Below are positions 27,476-60,514 of a DNA stretch of 64,000 nt, piece after piece; the first letter of the stretch is position 1, and every line of letters starts with the position of its first letter. The translations under genes and the position numbers were made by a program. Under the pieces are notes generated by a model that searched no databases, was not told where the DNA came from, and saw only the letters and a program-made list of their open reading frames with translations. The stretch is taken from sequence record PQ671644.1; one strand, written 5' to 3'. The stretch is from Escherichia phage DCP80.

Positions 27476-27516
27476 GTTATAAATACACCTGTAATTAAAC
27501 AACAAAGGAGTTTATT

Positions 27517-27750: not shown

Positions 27751-27754
27751 TTAT

Positions 27755-27780: not shown

Positions 27781-27827
27781 CTTTTAATAGAGATGGTATA
27801 ATTATTTCAACTACAGAGGAGAATACT

Positions 27828-29207: not shown

Positions 29208-29383
29208 TGGATTTATTTGAACTTTTTGAAGAGCCTAAAGCTCCCACAGAAGCCCGTGTGGACCTAGTTGACGAACTTGATGCGATTATACAGAAGCACG
29301 GTTTTAGTCTCCCATTGGAAGTTCTGCGCGACCTGGCCTCATATTACGACGACCCACCTCCATGGGCACCATGGAAACAGTAG
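29207..29383 (+). CDS. hypothetical small protein (58 aa)
   Basis: Short ORF ([13 protein letters not shown]...) with start overlapping upstream stop; below ORF-track cutoff. Confidence 0.3.
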   Translation: MDLFELFEEPKAPTEARVDLVDELDAIIQKHGFSLPLEVLRDLASYYDDPPPWAPWKQ

Positions 29384-29439
29384 TTTACTTACTCCCCTCC
29401 TAATGACATAATGACCTTTCTTACAACAGAGAGGTCATT

Positions 29440-29505
29440 ATGAACATCATCAAATCTGATACCGAACCCAACCAGTTAAAATTTAGTGAAATGGAGATAG
29501 CTTCA
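29440..29505 (+). CDS. hypothetical protein, N-terminal 22 codons (truncated by N-run)
   Basis: ATG 29440 with GAGAGG RBS embedded in a 10-bp inverted repeat. Confidence 0.35.
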
Positions 29506-33040: not shown

Positions 33041-33784
33041 ATGACACGTAACGAATATATCCAGGCCTTTAACGCAACTATCGACACAAAAGTAAAACCA
33101 TTGACAGGCGAATCGGCTATCCTTTTAATTATCAATTATTGGTTAAATCAGATTGATTCGACGATTGTTGCATCTGGTCGCTTCAAGAAAGACATTGCAA
33201 CTATTGCGAGTCGTGCCGGTAATGATGATATCAAGAAAACTTTTAAAGGTTCCAGAGTCCTGGCGTACCTGGTTAATAAAGACCTTCTTCATAAGTTTGG
33301 TGTTGAATCCAACCGCGGTAAAGGTACAATTGGGTATCATTGGTTTGGCGATGTTGAAAAATACTACCTTGATAAACAAGGCTATACTGTTTCTGAATTC
33401 GCACATTGCTGGGCTCGTGAATTCAGAGATAACAAAATGTCTATCATAAAATCAGCGACAAAATTGATGGGCGGTGATTTTCGCACTATCTCCCATTTGG
33501 CTGAGCACATGATAAAGGTTAAAGAGTCTGGTGAAAACCAGGTAATTATTACAGTTAAGCATGAGTTCTTTACGCCGGTGGCTACTCCAGAAAATGTCAA
33601 AAAGTATCTTGATGTTGCCTGTACGCTTTCTCATCAGCTGGTGTGTGCCCTTAACTATATGCGCACTGTTGAAAAAATTAAAGTAGACCCTATCACCAGT
33701 GCTCATGGTTGGAAAGGTTGGAAAATTGTGGTGACATTACCGACGATGAAGATGAGGACGATGAATAATGTTTATTATCCCTGA
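33041..33784 (+). CDS. hypothetical protein (247 aa) at the position of T4 genes 20/67
   Basis: ORF overlapping the gene 68 start by 17 nt; no resemblance to portal gp20 or gp67 noticed. Confidence 0.55.
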
Positions 33785-34196
33785 TGATTACGAATTAACT
33801 CTTGAAAACATTGAAAGTGTTTCCGAAGAAGCTCAGGGACAATTTGATTCATTATCTGAAGCCTTAGAAAAAGACGATATAAATATTATTGTAGAAAACA
33901 TGTTTGCAGCCGGTGAATACGAAAAAGCAACGGTTATCGGCGCTCTGAATGAAGGTGTTCAGCTTAACGAATTTATCGTTAAACATGTATCGTCTCGCGG
34001 TGAGTTAACCCGCACAAAAGACCGAGCTACTCGTAAGCGTAATGCTTTCCAAACAACTGGTCTTTCTAAAGCTAAACGTCGTCAAATTGCCCGTCTGGCT
34101 ACTAAAACGAAAAGAGCAAACCCATCTACGCAAATCAGAGCAGAGCGCAAGCGCAAAAAAGCTCGAGCTAAGCGTAAAGCATTCGGACTTGATTAA
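33768..34196 (+). CDS. 68: prohead core protein gp68
   Basis: 142 aa (T4 gp68 is 141 aa), basic C-terminal tail; immediately upstream of gene 21 as in T4. Confidence 0.7.
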
Positions 34197-34834
34197 TGGA
34201 ACAGAAACCAGAGTTACTAATCGAACACTGGGGTCAACCGGGCGAAATTAAAGATGGTGTACCGATGTTGGAATCTCATGATGGTTCCAGCAGCGGTTTA
34301 AAGCCAGGACTTTATATTGAAGGTATTTTCCTACAAGCTGAAGTTGTTAACCGTAATAAACGACTTTATCCTAAACATATTTTGGAAAAAGCCGTTGCGG
34401 ACTATATCGCCGAACAGGTTGAAACCAAGCAGTCTCTTGGAGAATTAAACCATCCACCTCGCGCAAACGTTGACCCTATGCAGGCAGCAATTATTATCGA
34501 GGAAATGTGGTGGAAAGGGAATGATGTATATGGCCGCGCGCGTATTATCGAAGGCGACCATGGCCCAGGTGATAAACTTGCTGCGAATATAAGAGCAGGT
34601 TGGATTCCTGGTGTATCTAGTCGTGGACTTGGTTCCTTGACTAAATCAGCAAAAGGTTATAGCATCGTTAATGAAGGTTTTAAATTGACGGTTGGAGTAG
34701 ATGCAGTATGGGGGCCAAGTGCTCCGGACGCTTGGGTCAAACCAAAGCAGATTACAGAATCACAAACGGCAGTTGCCGATACCAGTGCCGATGACGCCTT
34801 TATGGCTCTCGCAGAGGCTTTAAAGACGTTATAA
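34196..34834 (+). CDS. 21: prohead protease gp21
   Basis: 212 aa; matches T4 gp21 closely (GQPGEI.DGVPMLESHDG, LKPGLYIEGIF.QAEVVNRNKRLYPK, GELNHPPRANVDP, GDHGPGDKLAANIRAGWIPGVSSRGLGSL). Confidence 0.93.
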   Translation: MEQKPELLIEHWGQPGEIKDGVPMLESHDGSSSGLKPGLYIEGIFLQAEVVNRNKRLYPKHILEKAVADYIAEQVETKQSLGELNHPPRANVDPMQAAIIIEEMWWKGNDVYGRARIIEGDHGPGDKLAANIRAGWIPGVSSRGLGSLTKSAKGYSIVNEGFKLTVGVDAVWGPSAPDAWVKPKQITESQTAVADTSADDAFMALAEALKTL

Positions 34835-37940: not shown

Positions 37941-38023
37941 TTCCCGGTCGCATTATCTTTAAAAATTCTATCAAGAAGTCCAAAAAGTAGGTCTGATAAT
38001 GAAAATCCTACTTTTGGTTCCAT
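37941..38023 (-). CDS. t: holin t, N-terminal 27 codons (second copy, truncated by N-run)
   Basis: Identical to 20301..20383. Confidence 0.75.
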
Positions 38024-38042
38024 ACTTTTCTCCTTTAAAGAT

Positions 38043-38050
38043 ATTTATAA
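38043..38050 (-). promoter_or_regulatory. late promoter TATAAATA for gene t
   Basis: Identical to 20403..20410. Confidence 0.6.
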
Positions 38051-38063
38051 TGCTTTTGCGCTA

Positions 38064-38615
38064 CTATTTTTTAAACCATCTTTTGAAGAATGATTTTTTC
38101 TCTTTTTCTGGCCAAGCCGGGAATTCACCACCGAGGTGTTCGTGTTTTTCTAAAAGAGCAAAGAAACGTTTAAGATTCTGGTGATAGAATTTTTCTTTCT
38201 TATCGGCGACTGAGGCTTCAACCATATTACTTAATACCTGGAATTCTTTATACAAATCGTCAATTTTTCGATTGCGAATCATTACTCGTTTATATGTTTC
38301 ATCTTCTTTCCAGCCATCATCTGTCCATATATCAAACTCGCCAGGTTTATCGAAAGTTATACCGACTGGGCTTCCTATGTCATTTATTAAGATTTCTTCT
38401 TTATTAAAAGTCCATGCACGTTTGCCTCGATGGTCTTCTTCATAAATCCAATCTTGAATGCGTTCGTCAAATACAACGGCATACCCTTCTTTAGGTTCTA
38501 AAGGTTTTTTAGCTGTTGAATGGGCCGGAAGGCCAAGGCCTTTAATGGGTTTATAATTTTCTTCTTTGTAGAATTCTTTTGTGTCAAAATAAAAATGATA
38601 AATTTTCATATTCAA
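38064..38615 (-). CDS. 38: gp38, T4 type (tail-fiber assembly chaperone, not a virion adhesin)
   Basis: 183 aa (as T4 gp38); near-identical to T4 gp38 (KIYH.YFDTKEFYKEENYKP.KGLGLPAHST.KKPLEPKEGYAVVFDER.QDWIYEEDHRGKRAWTFNKEEI). Confidence 0.9.
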   Translation of the reverse strand: MNMKIYHFYFDTKEFYKEENYKPIKGLGLPAHSTAKKPLEPKEGYAVVFDERIQDWIYEEDHRGKRAWTFNKEEILINDIGSPVGITFDKPGEFDIWTDDGWKEDETYKRVMIRNRKIDDLYKEFQVLSNMVEASVADKKEKFYHQNLKRFFALLEKHEHLGGEFPAWPEKEKKSFFKRWFKK

Positions 38616-38636
38616 AAGGGGCCGAAGCCCCTCTCC

Positions 38637-41600
38637 TTATGCTAAACGAACGATATAGTTAAAAGCAATGTTTTTAACCGTGTTTTCTGTATTACCTGTA
38701 CTATTTACGGTAATGGTATGCCCATGTGAACCAATCGCTACAGTATGAGTGTGAGCACCGATACCTACCGTATGCGTGTGAGCACCAATACCTACAGTAT
38801 GAGCGTGGTTACCTGTGGCACTTGTGGTCCCTGACCAACTATGAGTATGAGCACCGTCTGAAGAAGTTTTGGCTATATTCGACCCTGCAGTAGCACCGCT
38901 CACGGTTCCAGTGATTTTAGCGTTGGCGTTTGCACCTACACTATTATATCCGTCATAGAATATGTTATTGGGTACGCCGGCTTGCATCTGAGGGCCTGAA
39001 CGCGCGTGTTGGTGTGCTCCGGCTGAACTGGTAGTACCACTCACTGTATGGTTATGGTTACCGGTGGTATTACTGGTCTTAGTACCATAATCAAAGCTTG
39101 AAGATGTTTTAGTGCCATAATCAAAGCTTGATGTGGTTTTAGTACCCAAGTCAGTACTCGAAGCAGATGCGCCATGGTTATGAGACTTAATACCATCAGC
39201 TTCTGCACTCAACACTGCGCGGCCACTTGGTTTACCCTTGATAGTTTGTCCACGCATATCAGGAATAGTACCAGAAGGATATGCAACAGCAAGCTTAGGA
39301 TAAGCACCTGTATCAAAGGTCTGACCTTCCATCAAAGCATAACCATTAGGAGGAGTATCCGTTGGCCATGGAATTGGGGCTCCAATAGGATAACTTGAAA
39401 CAATATCAGTTTTAAGTGATTCAATTGTACTGTTTAAGTTAGCAAAGTTACCAGAGCCACCGGTGATATTACCATCAGTTCCTAAAGTTGTGTTGCCTAC
39501 AATAATTTTACCAGGTAAGCGGAAGTCACCGGTGCGGCGGAATTCCCAACTTAAATCAGTTCCGGTAGTACTATTGCCCTGGTGATAATGAACGCGGAAG
39601 TCTCCTTGAGAAATTAAGGTGCCAATAGAATAAGTGCTATCACCATTTACATACCGTTGTTTAACAATAGGAATGTATTCAGAAGTAGCAGTACGCTCTA
39701 TATTCATATAAATTGGAGCCCTGACATCTGCGTAATTCTGAGATGCAAACGAACCAGCTCCTGCTGGGCGTACCGTATCAGTACATTCGGCCTCAATATA
39801 TGTCGACTGCCCCAATTTCATTCTAAAATTGGCATTAATGCGAGAGTTACTGTTTATCGTAGTTAAAGCATTATTTTGATCTACTATAAAAGAATCTCTT
39901 CCTAATCCAACCATACCATCGTTTAATCCTATTCTCACAGGTCTCAAAGAGCTGTGAATGTCTCCACTTTCGCCTTCATTTTGATTGGTTGGAAGAATAT
40001 AAAAGTTACTTTCTGAACGACGGAAAATAGCGCCATATTCAGCATTCCAAATTCTTAATGCATCTGCTGTTCCACCAATTTTTACTTGTCCGGTAATAGA
40101 AGAACCACCTTGGACAAACAAACCGTTAGACATAGTAACATTGCCACCAAAAGAACCTGTACCGGAGGCACTTATATTTCCAAGGCCTATGATATGGTCT
40201 GTTTCAACAGCTCCGTTAAATTTAAAGTTAACTGGACCTACTGTTTGACCTGACGCAGGATTAGTACGTTGAGCGTAGAAATAATAACCTTGTGAATCTG
40301 AAACTTCGAATACAGTTTCTCTATTACCGCCACCTGTATTAAATGAATTACCCCACGCTTTAATAGATATATAGTTTTTATTCTGTCCTGCGCGAGTACC
40401 AGCGCCCCACAGTATAGTTTTAGTGCCATCTAATGATGTAGGTGCATCAAGTTGAATACCGTCAGCTCTAGCCCCGGTAAGAAGTACCCCGTTATCAAAT
40501 TTAATTCTTTGAATAGAAGAAATAGTGCCGTCAGCATAAAGCTGTACATTATTAGCGCCGGTTACCAGTTTAAGAATACCTGGGTTAAGTTCCATGCCTT
40601 CTTGGGTGTTAATATTGGTTTGACCTCTACCGCGGAAATAGTGCGACATTTTTCCGCCAGAGTTATAACCAATATGCGTCTGACCATCGCCAGCTGTATT
40701 CCCGTCAGCCTGAGTTTGAGCTGATAAAAATGCAGCATTGGTTCCAGGCATAATCCATGTGGTGCCTTGGTCTTCTGAACGACCAAATAAACCTTTACGA
40801 GTACTACGGAAACTATCTGGAGTAATAGAAGCAACTGAATTCCCTGAACCAACTAAATCATAAACACCGGTTTTTTTGTATGACAGCCCCGTCCCGTTAT
40901 CGCCTAGAGCTAAATAAACACCGAATCCTAAAGCGGCACCATTACCATAGTCGCTTGACGGGTATCCTTCAGTCACAGTACCAATGGCCAAGCTATTGCG
41001 AACAATCATTCTGCCGTCATTACGAATACCATATAGTTTATATGTTGGTGTATTACCAGACCACCAAGAAACCTCATCAGCTTGGCCTAATTGGGCCGTA
41101 CAAATTTCATGATACATTGTACCACCAGACTTGGCGCGAACTTTACGAAGATAGTTTACACCATTCGTTTCGCCTGTGCCTGGGTATGTATATTTAACTA
41201 ATGAATCAGTGTCATATACACCAAATGCTTTGGCATCGTGAATAACTGTATCAGCTGCAATGCGTTTTGTTAATAACGCATCCGAAGCTAAAATACGGTT
41301 AGCCTGAAATTCACCGCCGTTTATAGAACGGAAATAGAATTCACTATTAGCAGTGCCTTCTGTCCCCTGTTTAAGCCTAATGCGTAATTCACCAGCATTT
41401 GTAGTTTGAGGGCGAGTATATATAACACCACGTTCAGTGCCATCGGCATTTTCAAACCAAAGGTGGGCATTTGACGTATCGTTTGTTGCTCTTGAATAAA
41501 ACGAACCCTGTAATGCTCTAAAAGTTTGAGCCGAAATACTCGTGCCTGCTGTAATCGACCCGCTTGTGGAAAAGTTTCCAAAATTGTTTAATGGGCCATT

Positions 41601-41810
41601 AATGCGTAAAGTTCCAGTAATAGTTACATCGCCATCAACTTGTCCACCTTTTGCAAAGCCCAAATCAATAATCTGTCCCTGGTCGGACTTGGTAAAAATA
41701 GTGCGGTCACGCAAGTTAATAGCCAGTTCGCCTTCATCTAACTGAGCTGCAGTAGGCTTGGCTCCTGGTGTTTTACTTCTTTTAAATTGTATCGATTTTA
41801 AAGTAGCCAT
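38637..41810 (-). CDS. 37: long tail fiber distal subunit gp37, T4 type (His-x-His C-terminal tip)
   Basis: 1057 aa; matches T4 gp37 from MATLK.IQFKRSK to the [48 protein letters not shown]-terminus. Confidence 0.95.
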
Positions 41811-41818
41811 AATGCCTC

Positions 41819-42023
41819 TTAATAATATCCAAAATCTTCAGATGTACCTCTAAGAACAACCTGGTCAATACGAGGAACGTGTTCGTTCAATGTTCCTGGG
41901 TTCCTAGATATGAAATTCGGGGCTGAAAGAACACCAGCCATAGATTGTATGTTACTATTATTTATTTGGACCTGTTTTGCGTTATCCACATCACTTAATC
42001 CAACTTGTGCTTTTGTCGGGGTA
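41819..42023 (-). CDS. 36: tail fiber protein gp36, C-terminal fragment
   Basis: Stop-free frame from the N-run to a stop 8 nt upstream of the gene 37 start; assignment by position. Confidence 0.6.
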
Positions 42024-42080: not shown

Positions 42081-42254
42081 ATTAACCCAGCCAAAGACCA
42101 TCCGGTTTGGCGTGAATGTGTTGAGCAAGGGTTTATCTATGTTCACTTTATGTCTAAGTTTAAACCAGATGGGCGAATGAGATTTGTGTTCACTTATCAC
42201 AAACGCCTGGATTTGCTTTTGGAAGATGTGGCATATAATAGAGCCAACGACTAA
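42081..42254 (+). CDS. hypothetical protein, C-terminal fragment (gene upstream of ligase)
   Basis: Stop-free frame from the gap to a stop at 42254, 3 nt before the ligase ATG. Confidence 0.4.
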   Translation: MNPAKDHPVWRECVEQGFIYVHFMSKFKPDGRMRFVFTYHKRLDLLLEDVAYNRAND

Positions 42255-42257
42255 GAG

Positions 42258-43796
42258 GTGATTATGATTTTAGATATTTTAAATGAAATTGCTGCAACCG
42301 ATTCCACTAAAGAGAAACAAGCTATCCTGGAATCGTATTCTGACAATGAAACCCTTAAACGCGTGTATCGTTTGACATATTCCAAAGGCATCCAGTTCTA
42401 TATTAAGAAATGGCCTAAACCTGGGGCAACGACACAAAGCTTTGGTATGCTGAATATCGATGATATGCTTGACTTTATCGAATTCACATTGGCCTCTCGC
42501 AAATTGACAGGTAATGCTGCAATCGAGGAATTATCTGGCTATATTGCAGATGGTAAAAAGGCTGATGTTGAAGTTCTTCGCCGTGTGATGATGCGTGACC
42601 TGGAATGCGGAGCATCCGTATCAATTGCGAATAAGGTTTGGAAAGGTTTAATTCCTGAACAACCACAGATGCTCGCTTCTTCCTATGATGAAGCCGGTAT
42701 TGCCAAGAACATTAAGTTCCCGGCCTTTGCACAATTGAAAGCCGACGGCGCTCGGTGTTTTGCAGAAGTTCGTGGCGATGAGTTGGATGATGTTCGATTG
42801 TTATCCCGAGCTGGCAACGAATACCTCAAGCTTGACCTCCTTAAAAAGGAATTGATTGAAGCTACCCGTGAAGCGCGTGAGAGACATCCTGAGGGCGTTT
42901 TGATTGACGGCGAGTTAGTATACCATGAACAGAAAGTAGCTCCCCAGAATGACGGTTTGGGTTTCCTTTTTGACGATTCAGATGAGATTGCTCCTGCAAA
43001 AGAAACCGCAGAATCAAGAACATTTTCGAATGGTATGGCAAACAAATCATTAAAAGGAACCATTTCTGCAACAGAAGCTTCTTGCATGAAATTCCAGGTT
43101 TGGGATTATGTTCCGCTGATTGAAGTCTATTCTGATGTTAAGATTCTCAATCCGTTGAAATACGATGTGCGTTTTGCTGTTCTGGAAAAGATGATTGCAG
43201 ATAACGTGGTGTTGCATGGTTTCGACCGCATGATTCTGATTGAAAACCATGTTGTTAACAATCTCGATGAAGCGAAGGTTATCTATAAGAAATATGTGGA
43301 TGAAGGTCTTGAAGGTATTATCCTTAAGAACATGGCATCGATTTGGGAAAACAAGCGCTCAAAGAACTTGTATAAGTTCAAAGAAGTAATTGACATCGCA
43401 ATGGAAATCATTGGATATTACGAGCACGATAAAGACCCGAATAAGATTGGTGGTGTTGTGCTTCGTTCTTCTTGTGGTAAGATTACAAATAACTGTGGTT
43501 CTGGTTTTAAAGACACAACTCAAGTTAAAGATAAGAAAACCAAAAAATGGGTTACTATTCCGATTGAGGAGCGTCATAAACTAGACCGTGAAGCCTTGAT
43601 GGTTAAAGCCCGCAAAGGTGAATTGGTTGGAATGATTGCTGACTGTGAATGCAATGGTTGGTTGACTTCCGAGACTCGTAAAGATAATACGGTTGCATTG
43701 TTCCTGCCGATTATCAAAGGGTTCCGTTTCGATAAAGACCATGCAGACACATTCGAAGATGTATTTGGTGACTGGTCAAAGACTGGACTAAACTAA
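42258..43796 (+). CDS. 30: ATP-dependent DNA ligase gp30
   Basis: 512 aa; matches T4 ligase (STK.KQAILE, KRVYRLTYS, YIKKWPKPG, FPAFAQLKADGARCFAEVRGDELDDVRLLSRAGNEY with active-site Lys in KADG, FEDVFGD). Confidence 0.93.
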   Translation: MIMILDILNEIAATDSTKEKQAILESYSDNETLKRVYRLTYSKGIQFYIKKWPKPGATTQSFGMLNIDDMLDFIEFTLASRKLTGNAAIEELSGYIADGKKADVEVLRRVMMRDLECGASVSIANKVWKGLIPEQPQMLASSYDEAGIAKNIKFPAFAQLKADGARCFAEVRGDELDDVRLLSRAGNEYLKLDLLKKELIEATREARERHPEGVLIDGELVYHEQKVAPQNDGLGFLFDDSDEIAPAKETAESRTFSNGMANKSLKGTISATEASCMKFQVWDYVPLIEVYSDVKILNPLKYDVRFAVLEKMIADNVVLHGFDRMILIENHVVNNLDEAKVIYKKYVDEGLEGIILKNMASIWENKRSKNLYKFKEVIDIAMEIIGYYEHDKDPNKIGGVVLRSSCGKITNNCGSGFKDTTQVKDKKTKKWVTIPIEERHKLDREALMVKARKGELVGMIADCECNGWLTSETRKDNTVALFLPIIKGFRFDKDHADTFEDVFGDWSKTGLN

Positions 43797-43797
43797 T

Positions 43798-43820
43798 AAA
43801 AGGGCTTCGGCCTTTTTTTC
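43798..43820 (+). terminator. rho-independent terminator after gene 30
   Basis: AAAGGGC-UUCG-GCCUUU hairpin followed by a U-run. Confidence 0.6.
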
Positions 43821-43821
43821 G

Positions 43822-43829
43822 TATAAATA
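43822..43829 (+). promoter_or_regulatory. late promoter TATAAATA for alt
   Basis: Exact TATAAATA 25 nt upstream of the alt ATG; Alt is a late, packaged protein in T4. Confidence 0.6.
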
Positions 43830-43854
43830 CATCATATTTTATAAGGAAAACAAT

Positions 43855-45732
43855 ATGACCGAATTATTGTCAGAGGTTTTTGAAGGGGAATCTAATATCC
43901 CGGCCATTAACCTTTCAAAGTCAAAAGTTCCACAGATTTGGAATATTCAGGTCCCTGGGAACGATAATCTTATTGCTCGTATGGTTTCTTACGCATCCGA
44001 AGGCGATGCTATCAAACAGGTCAAAACTGGTGATAAGTATGCTCACGTTATTTTGATGTCGTTAAATTCAAACGGTACTCCAGCTATTCTTAAAGGGGGT
44101 CTTGGTGATAACCCGATTGGAGCAATTAAATCCATTTTTGATGTAGTTTACGAACAAGTAAAACTGATGAAAATGGATGCAATTATGTTCCGCTTCCCGA
44201 CCCGTAAAATGAAGGGGCAAGAACGAACCATTCAGCGTGTTCTTGCTCGACTTATTATGGCTCGCGCGGGTGGCCAATTCAAAGTCCTGGATGATATGTA
44301 TCAATACACAGGTAAACATACTTACGTATTGATTTATCGTAAATCCAAACCGATTGAATCTATCGCCGGAATTCCAGGCATCAACACTGAGCTATACACA
44401 AAAGTGGAATCGAAAGTTGGTGATGTTTATGTGGATAAAGCCAGCGGTGAAACTGTTACCAAAAATGAAGCTATTGCAGCATCCATTGCAAAGGTTGAAG
44501 AAAAACGTACAGACCAGGCAGTTGTTGTTAAAACCAAGTTTTCTAAACGCGCGGCTATTAATGCGTTGTATTCGGGGAACGAACCAACTGGGCTTGCTAA
44601 ATTCTCGCCAGAACATAAAGAGATTTATACAAAGCTCTCGACTACCAGCGCAGTGCATTCAACAGATGATGCCAGAGAAAGTCAGATAGCTAAAGCTTCG
44701 ATAAAAGTAATCGACCGAGCAGGTGATGAATATGCAGATTATTTTGATTTAGTCGCGCAAGGCGATGTCGGTGAAGATAAGACAAAAACTCGTGTAGCTA
44801 TGGATGTGCTTAATGCTCTTAAAGAAGTCGGCATGGAACACAAAATAAGTGAGTTTTCGAACGTCCTGCGAGCCTCAAAGAATCCTGTTGATACATTGCG
44901 CAGGATTGCGGATATGTTGCTCGACGACTCCATTGTGGGGACCTGGGCTCGCGAAGATAAGACTAAAGAAGCTATTCGTATTATTGCGGATGAAATTTAT
45001 ACCAAGGCAATCCAACCGTTATTCCATATCTCCGATAACCCTGAAATAACCGACGACCAGGCCGAAGCAATTAAGGCATATACTCGCGGAAAATATACTG
45101 CAATCAATAATTTCCTTTTAGGGAAAGCTGATGCAAAAGAAAGCGAAATCAAAATGATTTCCGATATGGATAAAGTGTTTGAAAACGGTGTTAAGCTTCC
45201 GAAAGGAACTATTATCTACCGTGCTCAAGTTATGCCAACTGACATGGCGATTAATTCCATCAAAAATAAAACGATGTATCTTCCTATGTTTGCAAGTACA
45301 TCTCTTGCGCCAAATATTTTTGGTCGTATGGGCCATACTGCAGCAAACCTTGACCCGAATGCATTATCAAGTGATATCGATGACGGGGCAATTGATGCAA
45401 CTATTAAGAGTGCAACTGGTTCAGCAAAGCCTACAATCAAGATTGGTATGATTATCAAAGGTGCAGAAAATATCAAGGTAGTTATCCCTGGTGACTTGGC
45501 AAACTGGTCCGTTGAAACCGAAGTTATTCTTCCTCGTGGAACGATGCTTAAGATTGATAAGGTCTATGGTGCTACTGCTGGCATGATGGGTTCGATGGGT
45601 AAATACATTCTTGTTGAATGCTCTATCTTAGAAAATGACCAGATAGACGAATCAAATTCGCTTTTGAAAAAATATGACAGAATCTCTTATGATTTGTCTA
45701 TGGAAAAACTTGTACACCTTCTTAATTATTAA
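43855..45732 (+). CDS. alt: Alt-like ADP-ribosyltransferase (packaged internal protein)
   Basis: 625 aa next to gene 30 as in T4; R-S-E motifs (YTRGKY, MFASTSL, ETEVILP) in the C-terminal half. Confidence 0.8.
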   Translation: MTELLSEVFEGESNIPAINLSKSKVPQIWNIQVPGNDNLIARMVSYASEGDAIKQVKTGDKYAHVILMSLNSNGTPAILKGGLGDNPIGAIKSIFDVVYEQVKLMKMDAIMFRFPTRKMKGQERTIQRVLARLIMARAGGQFKVLDDMYQYTGKHTYVLIYRKSKPIESIAGIPGINTELYTKVESKVGDVYVDKASGETVTKNEAIAASIAKVEEKRTDQAVVVKTKFSKRAAINALYSGNEPTGLAKFSPEHKEIYTKLSTTSAVHSTDDARESQIAKASIKVIDRAGDEYADYFDLVAQGDVGEDKTKTRVAMDVLNALKEVGMEHKISEFSNVLRASKNPVDTLRRIADMLLDDSIVGTWAREDKTKEAIRIIADEIYTKAIQPLFHISDNPEITDDQAEAIKAYTRGKYTAINNFLLGKADAKESEIKMISDMDKVFENGVKLPKGTIIYRAQVMPTDMAINSIKNKTMYLPMFASTSLAPNIFGRMGHTAANLDPNALSSDIDDGAIDATIKSATGSAKPTIKIGMIIKGAENIKVVIPGDLANWSVETEVILPRGTMLKIDKVYGATAGMMGSMGKYILVECSILENDQIDESNSLLKKYDRISYDLSMEKLVHLLNY

Positions 45733-45740
45733 GGGTAAAA

Positions 45741-46130
45741 ATGTCTGAACAATTAAATGAACTCTTTGACAAATATATCGAAGCCTTCGGTTATCCTGTC
45801 ATTAATATGAATCCAAAATACAAGGTCCCGCAGGTTTGGCAATTCGGTGTTCCTGGGACCAATTCTCTTATGGCCCGTTTGATGCAATTCACGGGCAAAG
45901 AAACAGTTAAACAATATAAACGTGGTGATGCAATTGCCGAGGTATTCCTGCTCTCCGGGACTTCACACGGCCACGCTGTTCCTCTGAAGGGTGGTCTAGG
46001 TGAAAAACCTCTTGATGCAATTAACCTGATTTTTGTTACAGTCTGGGAAAGCATTAAACTAGGCAAACCTGATGTAGTCTTGTTCCGTTTCCCATCCAAA
46101 AAGATGAAAGGACAAGACCAAGCTGTTATT
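45741..46130 (+). CDS. Alt-like paralog, N-terminal 130 codons (truncated by N-run)
   Basis: N-terminal region about 45% identical to Alt (KVPQ.W...VPG.N.L.AR, LKGGLG..P..AI, FRFP..KMKGQ). Confidence 0.65.
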
Positions 46131-46160
46131 NNNNNNNNNNNNNNNNNNNNNNNNNNNNNN
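46131..46160. other. N-run (scaffold junction)
   Basis: 30 n. Confidence 0.95.
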
Positions 46161-46246: not shown

Positions 46247-46444
46247 TTATTCACCAAAATAAGAGATACGAACTGCCAGTACATGAGCATAAGCGCCCAT
46301 CGCGTCTAGTTGTGCAATCAAAAGACCTTGTTGACGAGCATCGAGAGTTTCAAAAACACCGCCCTTAATAAATTCTTCAAGAGCATTGATTTTCAAAACC
46401 AGCTGGTCATGTTCTTCAACTGCACGTGCTTGGAAACCTAACAT
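46247..46444 (-). CDS. hypothetical protein (65 aa) downstream of rIIB
   Basis: ORF following a GGGGC-UUCG-GCCCC hairpin (46456-46469). Confidence 0.4.
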   Translation of the reverse strand: MLGFQARAVEEHDQLVLKINALEEFIKGGVFETLDARQQGLLIAQLDAMGAYAHVLAVRISYFGE

Positions 46445-46477: not shown

Positions 46478-47452
46478 TTAGAATTGTTCAGTTACATCAT
46501 CAAGAACCAGGTAACCACAAACCCTCATCTTACTATCACCATAATCCACCGGGATGCTTACAACATCACGCGGGTGAACTTTACAGGATACGATGCGGCC
46601 ATCACCATGGCCAAAGCCACTTCCGATATAACCTTTAGAACAAACGTGCAGCCCAGTTGAACAGGTCTGTTCGTCATTGTCATTCACACGAGAGCGCGGC
46701 ATTTTAACATATTGGCCAGGGCTGTTGTCGAATGTGTTTGAGTGGCAATCTTTGTAGGTTGAACGAACCATTTTCCATGCGATGAAATGACCGTCTTCGG
46801 TGATTTCGATATCGTTTGCAACCAGGAAGTCAAACAAACGCTGTACAGCTTTCTCACTCGGGTTCTCAAGGAGATTCTCAAGGAACGGCAGATAGAATTC
46901 AAAGTCTTCGCCATTTTGCATTGAATCAATGATACGAGTAACCAGGCCGGAGCGCAGTTCAATTCCCTGATAGAACAGACTACCACCTTCAATACGCACA
47001 TCGCCTTTCACATATTTTTGTACTGCAGCTTTGATTGAAATAAACTCGATAGCATCTTCATAACGGAATTCAATCAATGCCTGAATAATATCATCAAAGT
47101 GTTTATGGTCTTTTGTTGCGTTCCAGACTGTACGACCTTCAGTGATGGAAACGAATTTGCTTGATGCGTTCCATACGATTTCTGGACGGCTGCCGCCGAT
47201 TGTATCTTCAACAACCGGAACTTCAACCGTTACTGTCACTGGAGCATTAATCGCCACCCCGACAGCGGCTTTCAATGATGCAGAAATGGTTTTAGCTAAT
47301 TTTGATTCTTTATCATTTTTCAAAACGCGGCGAATGGTGTCAACGGACACAGCAAAATATTCTGCCAATTCAGGCTGGGTATAATTGCCAGTTGAATACA
47401 TCTGGACCACATCAGCTTGTTCGGCTTTAGACATACATTTGATATTAAACAT
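46478..47452 (-). CDS. rIIB: rIIB protein
   Basis: 324 aa; matches T4 rIIB (NIKC..K.EQA..V..YS.GNYTQ.ELA, VSVDTIRRVLKN, DVRIEGGSLFYQ.IELRSGLV.RI.DSM, FLENLLENPS.KAV.RLFDFLVANDIEITEDG, HPRDVVSIP.DY). Confidence 0.92.
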   Translation of the reverse strand: MFNIKCMSKAEQADVVQMYSTGNYTQPELAEYFAVSVDTIRRVLKNDKESKLAKTISASLKAAVGVAINAPVTVTVEVPVVEDTIGGSRPEIVWNASSKFVSITEGRTVWNATKDHKHFDDIIQALIEFRYEDAIEFISIKAAVQKYVKGDVRIEGGSLFYQGIELRSGLVTRIIDSMQNGEDFEFYLPFLENLLENPSEKAVQRLFDFLVANDIEITEDGHFIAWKMVRSTYKDCHSNTFDNSPGQYVKMPRSRVNDNDEQTCSTGLHVCSKGYIGSGFGHGDGRIVSCKVHPRDVVSIPVDYGDSKMRVCGYLVLDDVTEQF

Positions 47453-50000: not shown

Positions 50001-50119
50001 GACTATAAATTATGGAATCTTTCCGTTCTTTCTTACTGAAGTATTCTGGGTTAACAAAAGGCCAAAGACCTTAGAACCATTATACACAGTAAAAATAAAA
50101 GCGTTAAAGGCAAAAAGTA

Positions 50120-50148
50120 GTGTACATAAAAGATGAATAGTATATAAT
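50120..50148 (+). promoter_or_regulatory. T4-type early promoter (second copy of 9037..9065)
   Basis: GTGTAC-17nt-TATAAT then GATTCCGTACTGAGTT leader. Confidence 0.5.
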
Positions 50149-50195
50149 GATTCCGTACTGAGTTATTCAATCGTCCGTAAGATGAGAAAAATATC

Positions 50196-50942
50196 ATGAC
50201 TTTATCAAAAACCAAAACGCTGAAAGTTAAACGTCGTCTGGAACACACTCAAGCTTCCGCTAAACGTCGCGGTAAGGACTTTAACCTGGATTTTGATTAT
50301 CTGGTTAACATTCTTGACCAAAAAGTTTGTGCTTATTCTGGTGAGACATTTAATAACTCTATTGAAGGTGAGAAGTTATCATTAGAGCGTTTTAACAATG
50401 ATATTGGTTATATCAAGGGTAATGTTATTCCTGTTAAAAAGAAATACAATACCATGCGTTCTGATTGGACCCTGGATGAGCTTAAACAACGCCGTGATGA
50501 TGTTGCTGTAAAAATTGCTCGCCCTTCTGCCAAGAAGATTGATAAGTTAAATCTGACTGCAGAGAAATGGGAACAGATTAAAAAGTCATATACTCATATC
50601 AAGAACATCCAGCATAAACGTGATAATCGCGTTAAGCATTATGCTCAAATGAGTAAATCAGAGCAGTCCAAAGAAAACCAATTAAAAATGGTTGCTCTGA
50701 AGGCTCGCATTGATGGTTCCCGTGTTGCGGAAGGTCATGAGCTTACTAAATTGAACGTTTTGCTCAAAGGCAATGACTGGAAAGTTACCAAGAAATTAAC
50801 TGATGCTGAAACGCTTTTTGATTGCTATGATAAAATCATTCAAGGTCTTGAGCGTTTTGAGAAGATTGGTTTTATTGGTAAATTAAAACTGAAACGTGGT
50901 CTGCCTTTGAACGCGTCAATTTTTAAACTGATTAGAGGTTAA
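50196..50942 (+). CDS. hypothetical protein (248 aa) at the srd position, diverged copy
   Basis: About 55% identical to 8247..8990 with identical last ~25 aa; flanks near-identical. Confidence 0.55.
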   Translation: MTLSKTKTLKVKRRLEHTQASAKRRGKDFNLDFDYLVNILDQKVCAYSGETFNNSIEGEKLSLERFNNDIGYIKGNVIPVKKKYNTMRSDWTLDELKQRRDDVAVKIARPSAKKIDKLNLTAEKWEQIKKSYTHIKNIQHKRDNRVKHYAQMSKSEQSKENQLKMVALKARIDGSRVAEGHELTKLNVLLKGNDWKVTKKLTDAETLFDCYDKIIQGLERFEKIGFIGKLKLKRGLPLNASIFKLIRG

Positions 50943-50943
50943 T

Positions 50944-51243
50944 GTGATGTACTACGCATATGTGCTAGTCTACAAAGATAAAGATGGTTTTGAACATCCA
51001 TTGGAGTATGATGGAAAGGTGACCTTATACACCACAAAAGTGGGCGCAGAATATGAACTTGCCAACTATTCATATACTACAAAACGCTATTTAAGTATGG
51101 GACGTATTGAAACACGGTATATTCCCAGAAAATGGTGGTTTGATAAGCGTGAAACAAAAACAGTTTTTCCTACTGAAGAACGTGCCCGCGAACTGAAATT
51201 AATTTTAGATACTTTATATGTTAAGCGAGTAAAATTGGCATGA
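50944..51243 (+). CDS. hypothetical protein (99 aa; dda.1 position), second copy
   Basis: 93% identical to 7946..8245. Confidence 0.5.
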   Translation: MMYYAYVLVYKDKDGFEHPLEYDGKVTLYTTKVGAEYELANYSYTTKRYLSMGRIETRYIPRKWWFDKRETKTVFPTEERARELKLILDTLYVKRVKLA

Positions 51244-52568
51244 TTAAATTTGAAGACTTGAACACAGGACAAAAAGAAGCTTTTGATTATATCACTGAAG
51301 CTATTCAGCGACGTTCGGGGGAATGTATCACTCTGAATGGCCCAGCTGGCACAGGTAAGACCACTCTGACAAAATTTGTCATTGACCACTTAGTGCGTAA
51401 TGGAGTTATGGGAATTGTGCTTGCTGCACCAACTCACCAGGCGAAAAAAGTTTTATCTAAATTGTCTGGTCAAACGGCGAATACAATCCATAGTATTCTG
51501 AAGATTAACCCGACCACATATGAAGACCAAAACGTTTTTGAACAGCGCGAAATGCCTGACATGTCAAAATGCAATGTTCTGGTTTGTGATGAAGCAAGTA
51601 TGTATGACGGGGCTCTGTTTAAGATTATTCTTAACTCTGTTCCTGAATGGTGTACTATTCTTGGGATTGGTGATATGCACCAGCTGCAACCAGTTGACCC
51701 AGGAAGTACACAACAAAAGATAAGCCCATTCTTTACGCATCCTAAGTTCAAACAGATTCATCTGACTGAGGTCATGCGAAGCAATGCTCCTATCATTGAA
51801 GTGGCGACAGAAATTCGTAATGGTGGCTGGTTCCGTGACTGTATGTATGATGGTCATGGTGTGCAGGGTTTTACCTCACAAACCGCTTTAAAGGATTTCA
51901 TGATAAACTATTTCGGTATTGTAAAAGATGCTGATATGTTGATGGAAAACCGGATGTATGCGTACACGAATAAATCAGTTGAAAAACTGAACAATATCAT
52001 TCGCCGTAAGCTCTATGAAACAGATAAAGCATTTTTACCGTATGAAGTCCTGGTTATGCAAGAGCCACACATGAAAGAGCTGGAATTTGAAGGCAAGAAA
52101 TTCAGCGAAACCATTTTTAATAATGGTCAGTTGGTTCGCATCAAGGATTGCAAATACACTTCCACAATTCTCCGTTGTAAAGGCGAATCGCACCAGTTGG
52201 TGATTAATTACTGGGACCTGGAAGTTGAGTCAATTGATGAAGATGAAGAATATCAGGTTGACCGCATCAAAGTTTTACCAGAAGACCAGCAACCAAAATT
52301 CCAGGCATACCTGGCTAAAGTTGCTGACACATACAAACAGATGAAAGCCGCTGGTAAACGTCCAGAGTGGAAAGACTTCTGGAAAGCTCGCCGGACCTTC
52401 TTGAAAGTTCGTGCTCTTCCGGTCAGTACAATCCATAAGGCACAGGGTGTTTCAGTGGACAAAGCATTCATCTATACTCCATGCATCCATATGGCCGAAG
52501 CTTCATTAGCGAGCCAGTTGGCTTATGTAGGAATCACACGAGCGAGGTACGACGCATATTATGTATAA
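51240..52568 (+). CDS. dda: Dda DNA helicase, second copy
   Basis: Differs from 6621..7949 by a single residue (V to I). Confidence 0.92.
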   Translation: MIKFEDLNTGQKEAFDYITEAIQRRSGECITLNGPAGTGKTTLTKFVIDHLVRNGVMGIVLAAPTHQAKKVLSKLSGQTANTIHSILKINPTTYEDQNVFEQREMPDMSKCNVLVCDEASMYDGALFKIILNSVPEWCTILGIGDMHQLQPVDPGSTQQKISPFFTHPKFKQIHLTEVMRSNAPIIEVATEIRNGGWFRDCMYDGHGVQGFTSQTALKDFMINYFGIVKDADMLMENRMYAYTNKSVEKLNNIIRRKLYETDKAFLPYEVLVMQEPHMKELEFEGKKFSETIFNNGQLVRIKDCKYTSTILRCKGESHQLVINYWDLEVESIDEDEEYQVDRIKVLPEDQQPKFQAYLAKVADTYKQMKAAGKRPEWKDFWKARRTFLKVRALPVSTIHKAQGVSVDKAFIYTPCIHMAEASLASQLAYVGITRARYDAYYV

Positions 52569-52800
52569 GGTACATAAAGAAGATTTAGATAATCTCATCT
52601 ATGGTATTCAGGACGCGGTTGAATTTTTCGAAGATAATCCGACTATCGTCGTGCAGGGTAATTACGTTTTACTGGAACTGAATCTTATTCGGAAACGTAT
52701 GGCCGCGATTGAATATTTTAACAATGAAGAGCCAGGGATTTTTATCTCCGACTATGTTGCTGGTGAAATTCAGAAATTAAAAGAGATGTGCGATGATTGA
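52561..52800 (+). CDS. hypothetical protein (79 aa), second copy
   Basis: Matches 6389..6628. Confidence 0.5.
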   Translation: MYKVHKEDLDNLIYGIQDAVEFFEDNPTIVVQGNYVLLELNLIRKRMAAIEYFNNEEPGIFISDYVAGEIQKLKEMCDD

Positions 52801-53476
52801 TGCTATTATTGACTTTGAAACTCTGGGAAACGGCTCGAAGGGAGCCGTTATTGACCTGGCCCTGATTACATTCGAATCTGACCCTGCTATTGTGGAATCG
52901 TTCGAAACCCTGGTTAATCGCGGCAAACGCATTAAGTTCAGCCTTGAATATCAAAAAGGTAAGCGGCTGTTCGACACAACAACTATGGGTTGGTGGAAAA
53001 AGCAATCAGCCGAAGCACGTGTTAACCTGGTCCCTTCTGCGCAAGATGTTGATACTCTGACTGGTATCCAACAAGCAATTGACTATCTGAATGACAATGG
53101 AATTAACAAATACGAAAGCCTTATGTGGTGCCGTGGAATGTCTTTTGACTTCCCGTTGTTTGTCGACCTTATCCGCGACCTGCAGCGCAATGAGGGGATT
53201 CCTGAGCGCGAATTGAATACCTATAACCTGGAGCCGGTTGTATTCTGGAACCAGCGAGATATCAGAACAGCAATCGAAGCCCTGTCACTCGTCCGTAAAA
53301 TGTGTGAAACTCCATTACCAAAGGGGACTTTAGATGGATTCGTGGCGCACGATTCGGTACATGACTGTGCGAAAGATATTTTGATGCTTAAGTACGCCCA
53401 GCGCTATGCCCTTGGTTTAGATGAAGTTCCTTCCGAAGAAGATGCAGACCCATTATCTTTGCCGAAAAAACGATAA
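52793..53476 (+). CDS. dexA: exonuclease A (DexA), second copy
   Basis: 227 aa, a few substitutions relative to 5713..6396. Confidence 0.75.
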   Translation: MIDAIIDFETLGNGSKGAVIDLALITFESDPAIVESFETLVNRGKRIKFSLEYQKGKRLFDTTTMGWWKKQSAEARVNLVPSAQDVDTLTGIQQAIDYLNDNGINKYESLMWCRGMSFDFPLFVDLIRDLQRNEGIPERELNTYNLEPVVFWNQRDIRTAIEALSLVRKMCETPLPKGTLDGFVAHDSVHDCAKDILMLKYAQRYALGLDEVPSEEDADPLSLPKKR

Positions 53477-53482
53477 AAAGTA

Positions 53483-53512
53483 GTGTACAAGGCCAATGGA
53501 AAGAGACATAAT
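53483..53512 (+). promoter_or_regulatory. T4-type early promoter (second copy of 5677..5706)
   Basis: GTGTAC-18nt-CATAAT then CATCAACTACTGATGAGGA. Confidence 0.5.
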
Positions 53513-53543
53513 CATCTCATCAACTACTGATGAGGACAACAAA

Positions 53544-53696
53544 ATGATTACTTCTTTTGAAATTGGCCAACAATATGAAATGTCCGCTCTTCAAGCTGCT
53601 GAAGCAGGTCTGACTAAAGCGTTTGAATGTGCATTTGCAAATATTCGTGGTAAAATCTTTACTGTCAATAAAATTGCGGTATATGATAAAGAAACA
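53544..53696 (+). CDS. hypothetical protein, N-terminal fragment (copy of 5388..5645)
   Basis: ATG 53544 after GAGGA RBS; truncated by N-run. Confidence 0.45.
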
Positions 53697-57140: not shown

Positions 57141-57170
57141 CTTTTGCCTGACGTTCAGCTTCTTCTTGTG

Positions 57171-57365
57171 TCATGATTTATCTCCGTAGATATCACGCAT
57201 CAGTTTAAGCACAGCTCGTTCGGTCTTCTTTTCCTGCATATCTTTGACGCTGGCGGCGGCCCATTCTTCAGCTTCGCGCTGCATTTCTTCCTCGGCTCTG
57301 GCTACCCAGGAATCATCAATCCCTGGAGTAACCAACCAATCTTTAAGCCAACTTGTAATTCTCAT
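57171..57365 (-). CDS. hypothetical protein (64 aa), copy of 28382..28576
   Basis: Identical translation. Confidence 0.45.
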   Translation of the reverse strand: MRITSWLKDWLVTPGIDDSWVARAEEEMQREAEEWAAASVKDMQEKKTERAVLKLMRDIYGDKS

Positions 57366-57722
57366 TTAATCACACGAGCTGGAAGACGAATCGCAGCTTC
57401 CTGAATCATAGGAGGAATAAGACGAATCACCAGTCCACGAACTGACGGCAGCAGCGACTACAATCGGAGTCATATCAATATGCGGTGTAGTATCGACATG
57501 GCTTGTAGAACGTCTTGAATCCAGATGCTCTTTTAACTTTTTCGAATTCAATGGCAATGCACCTGGTCCGACATTACCGGCTTTTTCTGGTCGGCGACGA
57601 ACTTCTTCCATCATACCATCGCCCATGTAAACATATTCTCTTAGCTTGACATCTGGTAGGCTAACAGGAACCACGCCCTCGTTTGGTTTGGTCTTGAATA
57701 AATTCTTGAGCCAACTAATCAT
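57366..57722 (-). CDS. hypothetical protein (118 aa), copy of 28022..28381
   Basis: Near-identical translation (a few substitutions). Confidence 0.5.
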   Translation of the reverse strand: MISWLKNLFKTKPNEGVVPVSLPDVKLREYVYMGDGMMEEVRRRPEKAGNVGPGALPLNSKKLKEHLDSRRSTSHVDTTPHIDMTPIVVAAAVSSWTGDSSYSSYDSGSCDSSSSSCD

Positions 57723-57916
57723 AGGAAACCTCGTTTAAATTCAACTTGACCATCATCATAACGGATTTCAATATTGAATTCTAAAGAATCATCATCGTGC
57801 ATCATGAACGAGTGCACGACAACCTCATCAAACACACCCAGACCATACTTAAAATGTACATCATGGGCAATAACTTCGTCTAAAGTTTTGTTCGGTTTAA
57901 TCCAACGGTTTAACAT
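57719..57916 (-). CDS. hypothetical protein (65 aa), copy of 27828..28025
   Basis: Identical translation. Confidence 0.45.
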   Translation of the reverse strand: MLNRWIKPNKTLDEVIAHDVHFKYGLGVFDEVVVHSFMMHDDDSLEFNIEIRYDDGQVEFKRGFL

Positions 57917-57964
57917 AGTATTCTCCTCTGTAGTTGAGATAATTATACCATCTCTATTAAAAGC

Positions 57965-57987
57965 AAAAAGGGAACCCGAAGGTTCCC
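57965..57987 (-). terminator. rho-independent terminator after soc (second copy)
   Basis: GGGAACC-UUCG-GGUUCCC with U-run on the minus strand. Confidence 0.65.
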
Positions 57988-57992
57988 TATAA

Positions 57993-58226
57993 TTAAACTA
58001 CTGGGGTAGGCGTAAACATCGCCGCGTTCTTAGTTCGCCAATCGGCTGCATCAGTCACTACAGTAGTATAGGCTGCAACGGCCGAAGGGAAAGTCTGATA
58101 ATGAGCATCCGCAATACGGTGCTCGTTTGAATAGATTTCAAACGGAACAGATACTTCAACACCTTTAACTTCTTTACCTTCACCAGCTGGATGCGTAAAG
58201 GTTTTGATATTAACGAAACCACCCAT
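57993..58226 (-). CDS. soc: small outer capsid protein Soc, second copy
   Basis: Identical translation to 27517..27750. Confidence 0.8.
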   Translation of the reverse strand: MGGFVNIKTFTHPAGEGKEVKGVEVSVPFEIYSNEHRIADAHYQTFPSAVAAYTTVVTDAADWRTKNAAMFTPTPVV

Positions 58227-58267
58227 AATAAACTCCTTTGTTGTTTAATTACAGGTGTATTTATAAC

Positions 58268-58549
58268 TTACAATTTGGCGGCTTGGACTGCTTTATTGGC
58301 TTCAGTCATTTTAGCTAGATTTTCAGCAGTAGGATTGGCAATGTATTCGGCTGTAGCTTTAGCAAAAACATTATGAGTTTCGATTACATTTTTAGCATTT
58401 TCAATATTCATATCAATTTCTTGTTTAGATAAATTTTTTAGTTGATTGGCTAAGAGTTCTACAAAGATTTCAACATTAGCGTTTTCAATTATATCATTAA
58501 TATGCTTCTTACGAGCTTTCTTAAGCTGACGTTTATTTAAACGAGGCAT
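58268..58549 (-). CDS. hypothetical protein (93 aa), copy of 27194..27475
   Basis: Near-identical translation. Confidence 0.5.
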   Translation of the reverse strand: MPRLNKRQLKKARKKHINDIIENANVEIFVELLANQLKNLSKQEIDMNIENAKNVIETHNVFAKATAEYIANPTAENLAKMTEANKAVQAAKL

Positions 58550-59067
58550 TAATAACCTCGGTCCTGACGAGCAAAGTTCTCGGCATTTTTCAGGTAATAC
58601 AGTTTAAAGATTTCTTCTGCTGTCAGACCAAGACCATGGAACATGTTCAGAACGAAATGGAGAATATCAATCATTTCGAATTTAATTTCGAGCTGGTCTT
58701 CAGGAGAGAGTTCGTCAATACGACGGTTACGGAATTCGCCATGTTGAGCTTTCCAAGGCTTCCAACAACTTGATGCAGCTTTCTCGCCATTAGACATACC
58801 ACCGAGAGAAGTCAGAAGTTCACGGAATTCGTCGTCAACATAATCTTTCTGGTTGCGAAGCCATGCAACAACATCGCCTGCGGTTGCCAATTCATCTGGA
58901 TGTGCGTTATATTCTGGTTTTTCTGTAGCCAGACGAACCTGCAAAGATTTCTGCATATCAAGCATAATCTGCAGAGGGTCATCATTGCCTTTTAGGACAT
59001 CATTATACGCATCTTGCGCTTTATCAACACCAGCAATCAGTTGAGAACACTCGTTAAAATGAGCCAT
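58549..59067 (-). CDS. 56: dCTP pyrophosphatase gp56, second copy
   Basis: Near-identical to 26676..27194 (a few substitutions). Confidence 0.92.
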   Translation of the reverse strand: MAHFNECSQLIAGVDKAQDAYNDVLKGNDDPLQIMLDMQKSLQVRLATEKPEYNAHPDELATAGDVVAWLRNQKDYVDDEFRELLTSLGGMSNGEKAASSCWKPWKAQHGEFRNRRIDELSPEDQLEIKFEMIDILHFVLNMFHGLGLTAEEIFKLYYLKNAENFARQDRGY

Positions 59068-59105
59068 TATATTTTTCCTTATCAATTCATGTTGTTTGTA
59101 TGTTA

Positions 59106-59129
59106 ATTATATCATATTGGTTTAAAGCA
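59106..59129 (-). promoter_or_regulatory. middle promoter (MotA box + TATAAT) for gene 56, second copy
   Basis: Reverse complement of 26614..26637. Confidence 0.5.
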
Positions 59130-59151
59130 TAAATACAAGAAAGGAGGATGT

Positions 59152-59349
59152 ATGCTCAAACTATCTAGTCTAATTCAAGCCATCAAAGGCAGTCGTAAGC
59201 GAACGATTCTGGTCCTTTCGATACTCTGTTTTGTTCTACTCTGGAATTTCATTGTTGTCCCTATTGCATTGGCACATGGTGTTATATTGCCAGTCGTCGC
59301 GCTCGAATCAGTTGTAGATGTTTCACTAGCATTAATCGGCCTTATATAG
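59152..59349 (+). CDS. small membrane protein (65 aa), second copy
   Basis: One substitution relative to 26394..26591. Confidence 0.45.
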   Translation: MLKLSSLIQAIKGSRKRTILVLSILCFVLLWNFIVVPIALAHGVILPVVALESVVDVSLALIGLI

Positions 59350-59457
59350 GTGGAACTTACTGGTTGTGCCTATCGCTGCAACACAAGGGGTGCACTTACC
59401 CCAGGTCACAATGGAACATATTCATTCCATCATCGGTTACTTTACCGGAATCCCTTC

Positions 59458-60486: not shown

Positions 60487-60514
60487 AGTTTCCTCATTTC
60501 AATGGCCCCGAAGG

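Follow-up and report, generated by a model that had tools for sequence, protein, structure and literature searches.

Tandem alt genes behind the DNA ligase gene in a Gaprivervirus contig from Escherichia phage DCP80

We analyzed a 64,000-nucleotide (nt) stretch of DNA from Escherichia phage DCP80 (PQ671644.1; hereafter the window), and within it the alt locus, where a first-pass annotation made from the sequence had described a gene for a 625-amino-acid (aa) homolog of the Alt ADP-ribosyltransferase (ART) and, immediately downstream, a second gene with a paralogous N-terminal region. The locus is already known, as a near-identical copy of annotated genes in a familiar arrangement: Shigella phage SP18 (NC_014595) carries the pair under the names alta (624 aa, SP18_gp212) and altb (686 aa, SP18_gp211), which we use here, and Escherichia phage PSD2001 carries unnamed open reading frames (ORFs) of the same sizes. 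Duplications of alt were reported in 2006 by Nolan et al., the second alt being full-length in Aeromonas phage 44RR and partial in RB49 and T4 (PMC1524935).

Genes and promoter of the alt locus

The alt genes, the domains of the AltA protein and their promoter are laid out as follows:

43822-43829, plus strand: T4-type late promoter TATAAATA, 25 nt upstream of the alta ATG, just after a hairpin, and common to alta and altb
43855-45732, plus strand: alta, encoding a 625-aa Alt-like protein of a short-tail subtype, predicted to be an NAD+--arginine ADP-ribosyltransferase (PF03496, PHROG 802)
43876-44544, plus strand: AltA conserved N-terminal alpha/beta domain, residues ~8-230 (Pfam PF26846, Tevenvirinae_ADPRT, from precomputed annotations)
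44545-45039, plus strand: AltA hypervariable, all-helical central region, residues ~231-395 (AlphaFold helices; low identity)
45040-45651, plus strand: AltA R-S-ExE ART domain, residues ~396-599 (PF03496; Foldseek), ending at IDE-599
45741-46130, plus strand: first 130 codons of altb, ortholog of the 686-aa alt gene of SP18 and VR20 (LNE-7; residues 1-129 match PHROG 802, E 1.6e-45)

This locus sits on a contig of the window, 42081-46130, that aligns end to end with PSD2001 (96.8% nt identity) and with SP18 (94.8%), both members of Gaprivervirus within the Tevenvirinae. The match is collinear over the whole contig with four independent complete genomes, those of PSD2001, SP18, phage 212 and P896. 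In all four the genes, the order ligase-alta-altb, the promoter and the hairpin are the same; unlike SP18 and PSD2001, the window has an altb that is cut by the contig end and an AltA with one extra C-terminal Tyr (625 rather than 624 aa). At 45724-45732 the end of alta reads ...AAT TAT TAA (Asn-Tyr-stop) where SP18 and PSD2001 read ...AAT TAA, a 3-nt in-frame difference.

AltA matched PHROG 802 (Alt-like RNA polymerase ADP-ribosyltransferase) over residues 1-603 (E 3e-198) and Pfam family PF03496 (ADPrib_exo_Tox) over residues 397-589 (E 1.9e-15). The R, S-T-S and E-x-E motifs pointed out in the first-pass annotation are present as YR456A, S481-T-S483 and E554-T-E556, at columns that hardly vary among 126 Alt homologs (R in 125/126, S-T-S in approximately 121-126/126, both Glu in 126/126). 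An AlphaFold (AF2) model of the protein, with a predicted local distance difference test score (pLDDT) of 79.5 and a predicted template modeling score (pTM) of 0.70, consisted of an alpha/beta N-terminal domain, an all-helical center and a C-terminal ART domain. Foldseek comparison of the ART domain with the PDB retrieved CDTa, Vis, iota Ia, VIP2 and C3 (E ~1e-6); we know of no solved structure of Alt itself. The catalytic fold and motifs of the AltA C-terminal domain match those of the bacterial R-S-E ADP-ribosyltransferases C3, VIP2, iota Ia and CDTa. However, these enzymes share 15-19% identity with it, lack the Alt N-terminal domain, are delivered by other means (secretion or as binary toxins) and have other targets.

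The cluster of SP18 AltA is annotated with both PF26846 and PF03496. PF26846 is known to us from these precomputed annotations, as our local Pfam copy does not contain it, and a search of that copy, even at E <= 10, left the first 235 residues of AltA, AltB and T4 Alt without a match. No NCBIfam model was found for AltA or AltB, and a look-up of the exact 625-aa AltA protein returned no record.

The altb gene begins at 45741, 8 nt after the alta stop codon, and continues to the last base of the contig, where, as the first-pass annotation had observed, its ORF meets a run of Ns (46131-46160). The 130 visible residues are 44% identical to the N-terminus of AltA (57/130, E 2e-34), in keeping with the approximately 45% originally given, and 100% identical to residues 1-130 of SP18 AltB. 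SP18 AltB matches PF03496 at residues 413-606 (E 5.8e-20) and has the catalytic motifs WR, STS (500-502) and EQE (577-579). This supplies, from the ortholog, the C-terminal domain that was sought for the second gene, although the remainder of altb is itself absent from the window.

Protein identity of AltA is 99.7% to its PSD2001 counterpart and 98.7% to SP18 AltA, and six of the eight amino acid differences from the latter fall at residues 264-351. At the codon level, alta differs from the SP18 gene by 105 synonymous and 8 non-synonymous changes, and the altb fragment differs from SP18, PSD2001 and VR20 by 6-9 nt, all synonymous. This indicates that both genes are under purifying selection.

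Upstream of the promoter lie two further features:

42258-43796, plus strand: gp30 ATP-dependent DNA ligase (Pfam PF01068, E 2e-28), collinear with the SP18 and PSD2001 ligase genes
43798-43819, plus strand: UUCG-loop hairpin followed by a T-run, AAAAGGGC-TTCG-GCCTTTTTTT, read directly from the sequence

The gp30 ligase, whose true start is likely the ATG at 42264, is the conserved upstream neighbor of alt in Tevenvirinae. The location of alt is between gene 30 (ligase) and gene 54; the ligase side is seen in the window and the gp54 side in SP18 and PSD2001. Between the ligase gene and alt, the hairpin looks like a terminator or an RNA-stability element. A terminator 5' of alt is conserved in five of six genomes (Nolan 2006, PMC1524935). 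A simple terminator scan missed the hairpin because of one G-T pair, and we relied instead on direct reading and on conservation, the element being present also in SP18, VR20, T4 and WG01. The arrangement of hairpin and then late promoter 5' of alt recurs in SP18, VR20 and T4, which bears out the late promoter assigned to alt in the first-pass annotation; T4 alt belongs to the late genes (PMC9697503). We counted 16 copies of the octamer TATAAATA in the window where 4.85 would be expected, and an octamer scan of the window found no second late promoter in the alta-altb interval.

Divergence and copy number of alt genes

We compared AltA region by region with SP18 AltB, as the paralog comparison, and with 124 homologs, for which the family value is the median identity to AltA:

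AltA 1-130, first part of the N-terminal domain: 45% identity to AltB; family median 68% (residues 8-130)
AltA 131-230, second part of the N-terminal domain: 39% identity to AltB; family median 61%
AltA 231-395, central helical region: 24% identity to AltB; family median 13%
AltA 396-600, ART domain: 37% identity to AltB; family median 32% (residues 396-599)
AltA 601-625, C-terminal tail: 16% identity to AltB (no real similarity); family median 15% (residues 600-625)

Judged by these identities, conservation within the Alt family is highest in the N-terminal domain, whereas the center and the C-terminal tail diverge. The description of the second gene as having a diverged N-terminal domain therefore has to be corrected, the variable part of Alt being its center and tail and not its N-terminus.

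The second gene had also been presented as the novelty of the locus, and here the comparison with related phages pointed the other way. In VR20-type Gapriverviruses the ligase gene, hairpin and late promoter are followed directly by an altb-type gene, and all Gapriverviruses examined have a gene of this type. The window differs from VR20 by an insertion/deletion of ~1.9 kb that is almost exactly the alta ORF plus spacer (43855-45740), with upstream homology reaching within ~6 nt of the alta start codon (blastn against VR20 aligned positions 1-149 and 2042-2431 of the query 43700-46130). The VR20 junction is not what a simple deletion between the two Shine-Dalgarno microhomologies would give. 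Only five phage records held AltA-type proteins at >=95% identity, and the next relatives, at 62-63% identity, are the first genes in the three-gene alt arrays of Dhakaviruses such as WG01. On the evidence of VR20-type gene order and of this distribution, the genus has altb as its resident gene and alta as an extra, less common cassette.

The Dhakavirus arrays (WG01 ORF201-200-199; phage 04086) occupy the same locus, and their first gene is of AltA type (63-64% identity) with the same short tail. They differ in having three paralogs, not two, and in that the downstream members come from other Alt clades. More widely, 1,221 records of the phage collection gave 1,815-1,840 Alt-like places. Arrays of 1-3 full-length alt genes stand between the ligase gene and gp54, and N-domain-only or split Alt ORFs of 211-484 aa occur in other phages. 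The initial observation of tandem alt genes is confirmed and its interpretation partly supported: two paralogs behind one late promoter, belonging to a diversifying family of effectors predicted from T4 Alt to be packaged and injected, are retained, but the N-terminal divergence and the novelty of the second gene are not.

Predicted processing and delivery of AltA and AltB

Both paralogs align with T4 Alt (gpAlt, NP_049811) at 33-36% identity over ~100% of their length (AltA 34% end to end; SP18 AltB 36% in a full-length alignment). They are alike in the N-terminal domain, the central region, the R-S-ExE ART domain, the late promoter and the position after the ligase gene; in T4, unlike the window, a small additional gene, alt.1, separates alt from the ligase gene. 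Alt of T4 is a protein of the head core, present in ~40 copies; it undergoes trimming by gp21, is injected together with the DNA (PMC9958956, PMC9026906) and ADP-ribosylates RNA polymerase alpha among other host proteins (PMC9958956, PMC9026906, PMC5512222). An Alt homolog has been detected by mass spectrometry in virions of Morganella phage MP1 (PMC5384007).

L/I-x-E is the cleavage motif of the T4 prohead protease, which cuts behind the Glu (PMC9026906). T4 Alt is cleaved at ITE-6 and at LTE-619, the latter established by mass spectrometry in 2017 and removing 63 C-terminal residues (PMC5694885). Both sites align with sites of AltA, and the window encodes a T4-like gp21:

43855-43875, plus strand: predicted N-terminal propeptide of AltA, residues 1-7, ending in LSE-7, which aligns with T4 ITE-6
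45652-45729, plus strand: predicted C-terminal propeptide of AltA, 26 residues and atypical (63 in T4 Alt, 67 in AltB; alignment of homologs)
34196-34834, plus strand: gp21 prohead protease, on another contig of the window (PHROG 207, E 4e-76; 88% identity to T4 gp21)

When gp21 motifs were looked for near the N-termini, as the first-pass annotation had suggested, LSE-7 was found in AltA and LNE-7 in the AltB fragment. The column has L/I in 123/126 and Glu in 126/126 homologs, followed by (V/L)-F-(D/E). Toward the C-terminus, AltA IDE-599 aligns with T4 LTE-619 in a column with L/I in 123/126 and Glu in 125/126 homologs, and SP18 AltB has LDE-619 followed by 67 residues. At both ends, the gp21 sites mapped by experiment in T4 Alt are in this way conserved across 126 homologs, AltA and AltB included. 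AltA contains six L/I-x-E triplets in total, and the two that align with T4 lie in segments that are disordered in the AF2 model (residues 1-8 and 600-614). By analogy with T4, trimming of AltA and AltB would be expected to fall to the gp21 of the window. The C-terminal tail of AltA departs from the family. AltA lacks the canonical propeptide of ~45 residues (F-x-SF...LASCID...P-KF) that is otherwise near-universal, and its 26-residue tail is shared with WG01 ORF201, against 63-67 residues for the near-universal tail. The PHROG 802 match ends at AltA residue 603, which is profile position 618 of 674.

The T4 proteins IPI-III likewise belong to the head core, undergo gp21 trimming at L/I-x-E and are injected together with the DNA. 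Unlike Alt, they are small and non-enzymatic and have a 10-19-residue N-terminal capsid targeting sequence; Alt loses just 6-7 N-terminal residues and has a C-terminal propeptide as well.

Together, the identity of the whole contig, the domains and motifs, the homology to T4 Alt, the purifying selection, the shared promoter, the conserved gp21 sites and the gp21 gene in the window favor one explanation, which we regard as highly probable: that the locus is the ligase-proximal end of a Gaprivervirus alt region, in which a single late promoter serves two full-length paralogs whose products would be packaged and injected effectors like T4 Alt. By analogy with T4 Alt, we infer the following course. 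A single late transcript would yield AltA and AltB late in infection, and both proteins would be incorporated into the scaffolding core of the prohead. There gp21 would trim both after E7, and at the C-terminal end after E599 in AltA and E619 in AltB. The trimmed proteins would stay in the mature head and be ejected with the DNA, and in the next host they would carry out NAD+-dependent mono-ADP-ribosylation of arginines in host proteins, RNA polymerase alpha being the classic target. Specificity for arginine is predicted from the intact E-x-E motif and from homology. The conserved N-terminal domain would most likely serve assembly or packaging. Since the paralogs differ in the central helices, in loops of the ART domain and in the C-terminal tail, they probably have different target sets or regulation. 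If Alt paralogs do have distinct targets, such arrays would represent a natural system for the diversification of injected effectors.

The N-terminal domain may also be found outside Alt. Foldseek comparison with BFVD detected the fold in long non-Alt phage proteins (E 1e-6 to 1e-4, 10-17% identity), some of them named with other domains such as ParB/Srx or deaminase, with a zeta-toxin-domain protein matching more weakly (E 2.8e-3); the matches also included N-domain-only or 'split' Alt ORFs. These structural matches hint at a reusable delivery module. A wider proposal, which is speculative and in our view rather unlikely, would make the PF26846 domain a general head-delivery adaptor with a GNAT-like fold. 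Under it, the domain would recur at the N-termini of long non-ART proteins from unrelated phages, alt arrays would be exchangeable cassettes behind one late promoter, the target set would be determined by the hypervariable center, and the short-tail type represented by AltA would be differently tethered or regulated. Support for a GNAT fold of the Alt N-terminal domain was weak, and we do not claim it.

Several points weigh against packaging and injection of two full-length paralogs. The C-terminal 556 codons of altb are absent from the window, where tblastn with SP18 AltB found nothing beyond 46130, and the case for an intact altb in this genome would rest on its relatives and on synonymous-only divergence. 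In a search for the rest of altb, an exact 48-nt junction pattern was not found in genome_contigs or viral_contigs. In addition, AltA has its 26-residue tail in place of the canonical 63-67-residue propeptide, and its packaging or regulation may differ. This last point is the starting point for the alternative that survives best, in which AltA is an active ART that is neither packaged nor injected, acting late in the producing cell or taking another fate because of its altered tail, and the pair consists of one injected and one intracellular enzyme. The lack of a near-universal propeptide would suit such a fate, and the role of that propeptide is unknown (PMC5694885). However, AltA retains the conserved N-terminal domain, LSE-7 and IDE-599, and stands under the same late promoter, and we consider it improbable that AltA is excluded from the head.

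Contig ends and strain mixture in the window

The window is made up of short contigs with N spacers between them, and every contig start coordinate equals 1 mod 20. The spacer that follows altb is one of these:

46131-46160, no strand: 30-N spacer, a join of unrelated contigs and no intragenic gap

Past this N-run lies the rIIB/rIIA region on the opposite strand, and the alignments to SP18 and PSD2001 both end exactly at 46130. Read in this way, the N-run is a contig join and no lesion, and the truncation of altb is an assembly artifact of a mixed-strain contig set.

It is very unlikely, in our estimate, that the second gene of this genome is instead a short remnant without an effector domain, as are T4 alt.-1/alt.-2. 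These lie immediately downstream of alt in T4 (L005 2066-2451), derive from a second alt paralog, and their annotation describes a duplication that has decayed. With the N-terminus of P0110 (L009 5001-7058), an intact second alt of 685 aa, they share 91-96% identity, which indicates that the decay in T4 is recent; P0110 is located on a T4-like metagenomic contig of 168 kb, in which the genes run ligase-alt.1-alt-alt2-alt.-3-gp54. The T4 precedent, the N-domain-only or split Alt ORFs of other phages and the fact that just 130 altb codons are visible in the window would all be compatible with a remnant. However, the altb fragment has no stop codon and finishes at the contig end, its protein is identical to the N-terminus of SP18 AltB and its nucleotide changes are all synonymous. 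Moreover, the second gene is intact, at 686 aa, in the close relatives SP18 and PSD2001, whereas T4 alt.-1/alt.-2 are decayed fragments.

Two pairs of regions are duplicated within the window, 4521-9759 with 50001-53696 (95.5% identity) and 25041-29505 with 57141-60514 (96.6%), which indicates that contigs from two or more related Gaprivervirus strains are mixed in the window. This mixture probably explains both the short contigs and the break inside altb. We find it barely credible that alta and altb became neighbors only through a chimeric assembly, joining the sequence of a strain that has alta behind the ligase gene to that of a co-occurring strain that has altb there: the window does hold at least two strains at 95-97% identity and one silent contig junction, and altb directly follows the ligase gene in VR20-type genomes, but the contig 42081-46130 is collinear with the complete genomes of PSD2001, SP18, phage 212 and P896.

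The silent junction, which has no N at all, lies at 33740|33741 inside the segment 29541-37899. Up to 33740 this segment corresponds to the nrdC region of SP18 (reversed), and afterwards it carries gp21, gp22 and gp23, which are not adjacent to nrdC in T-even genomes. The ORF 33041-33784 spans the junction and is chimeric. At 20301-25004 and 37941-42023 there are two distinct gp37-like distal long-tail-fiber genes (75.6% identity across 1.4 kb), and both contigs open with an identical 111-nt stretch that looks like a branch of the assembly graph. The 5' end of the ORF 21252-25241 is artifactual, as this ORF passes through the N-run 25005-25040.

Beyond the altb contig, the minus strand carries at 46247-46444, just downstream of rIIB (46478-47452), a small gene whose 65-aa product belongs to the crAss001_48 family (PF21825, E 2.5e-17), and another minus-strand gene, with its start at 46243, is interrupted by the same contig end. 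SP18-type phages also encode modA and modB (SP18 modA/modB: L006 11459-12678) in addition to alta and altb, so that the lineage encodes four ADP-ribosyltransferases. The window segment 4521-9759 extends into the SP18 modA region at ~90% identity.

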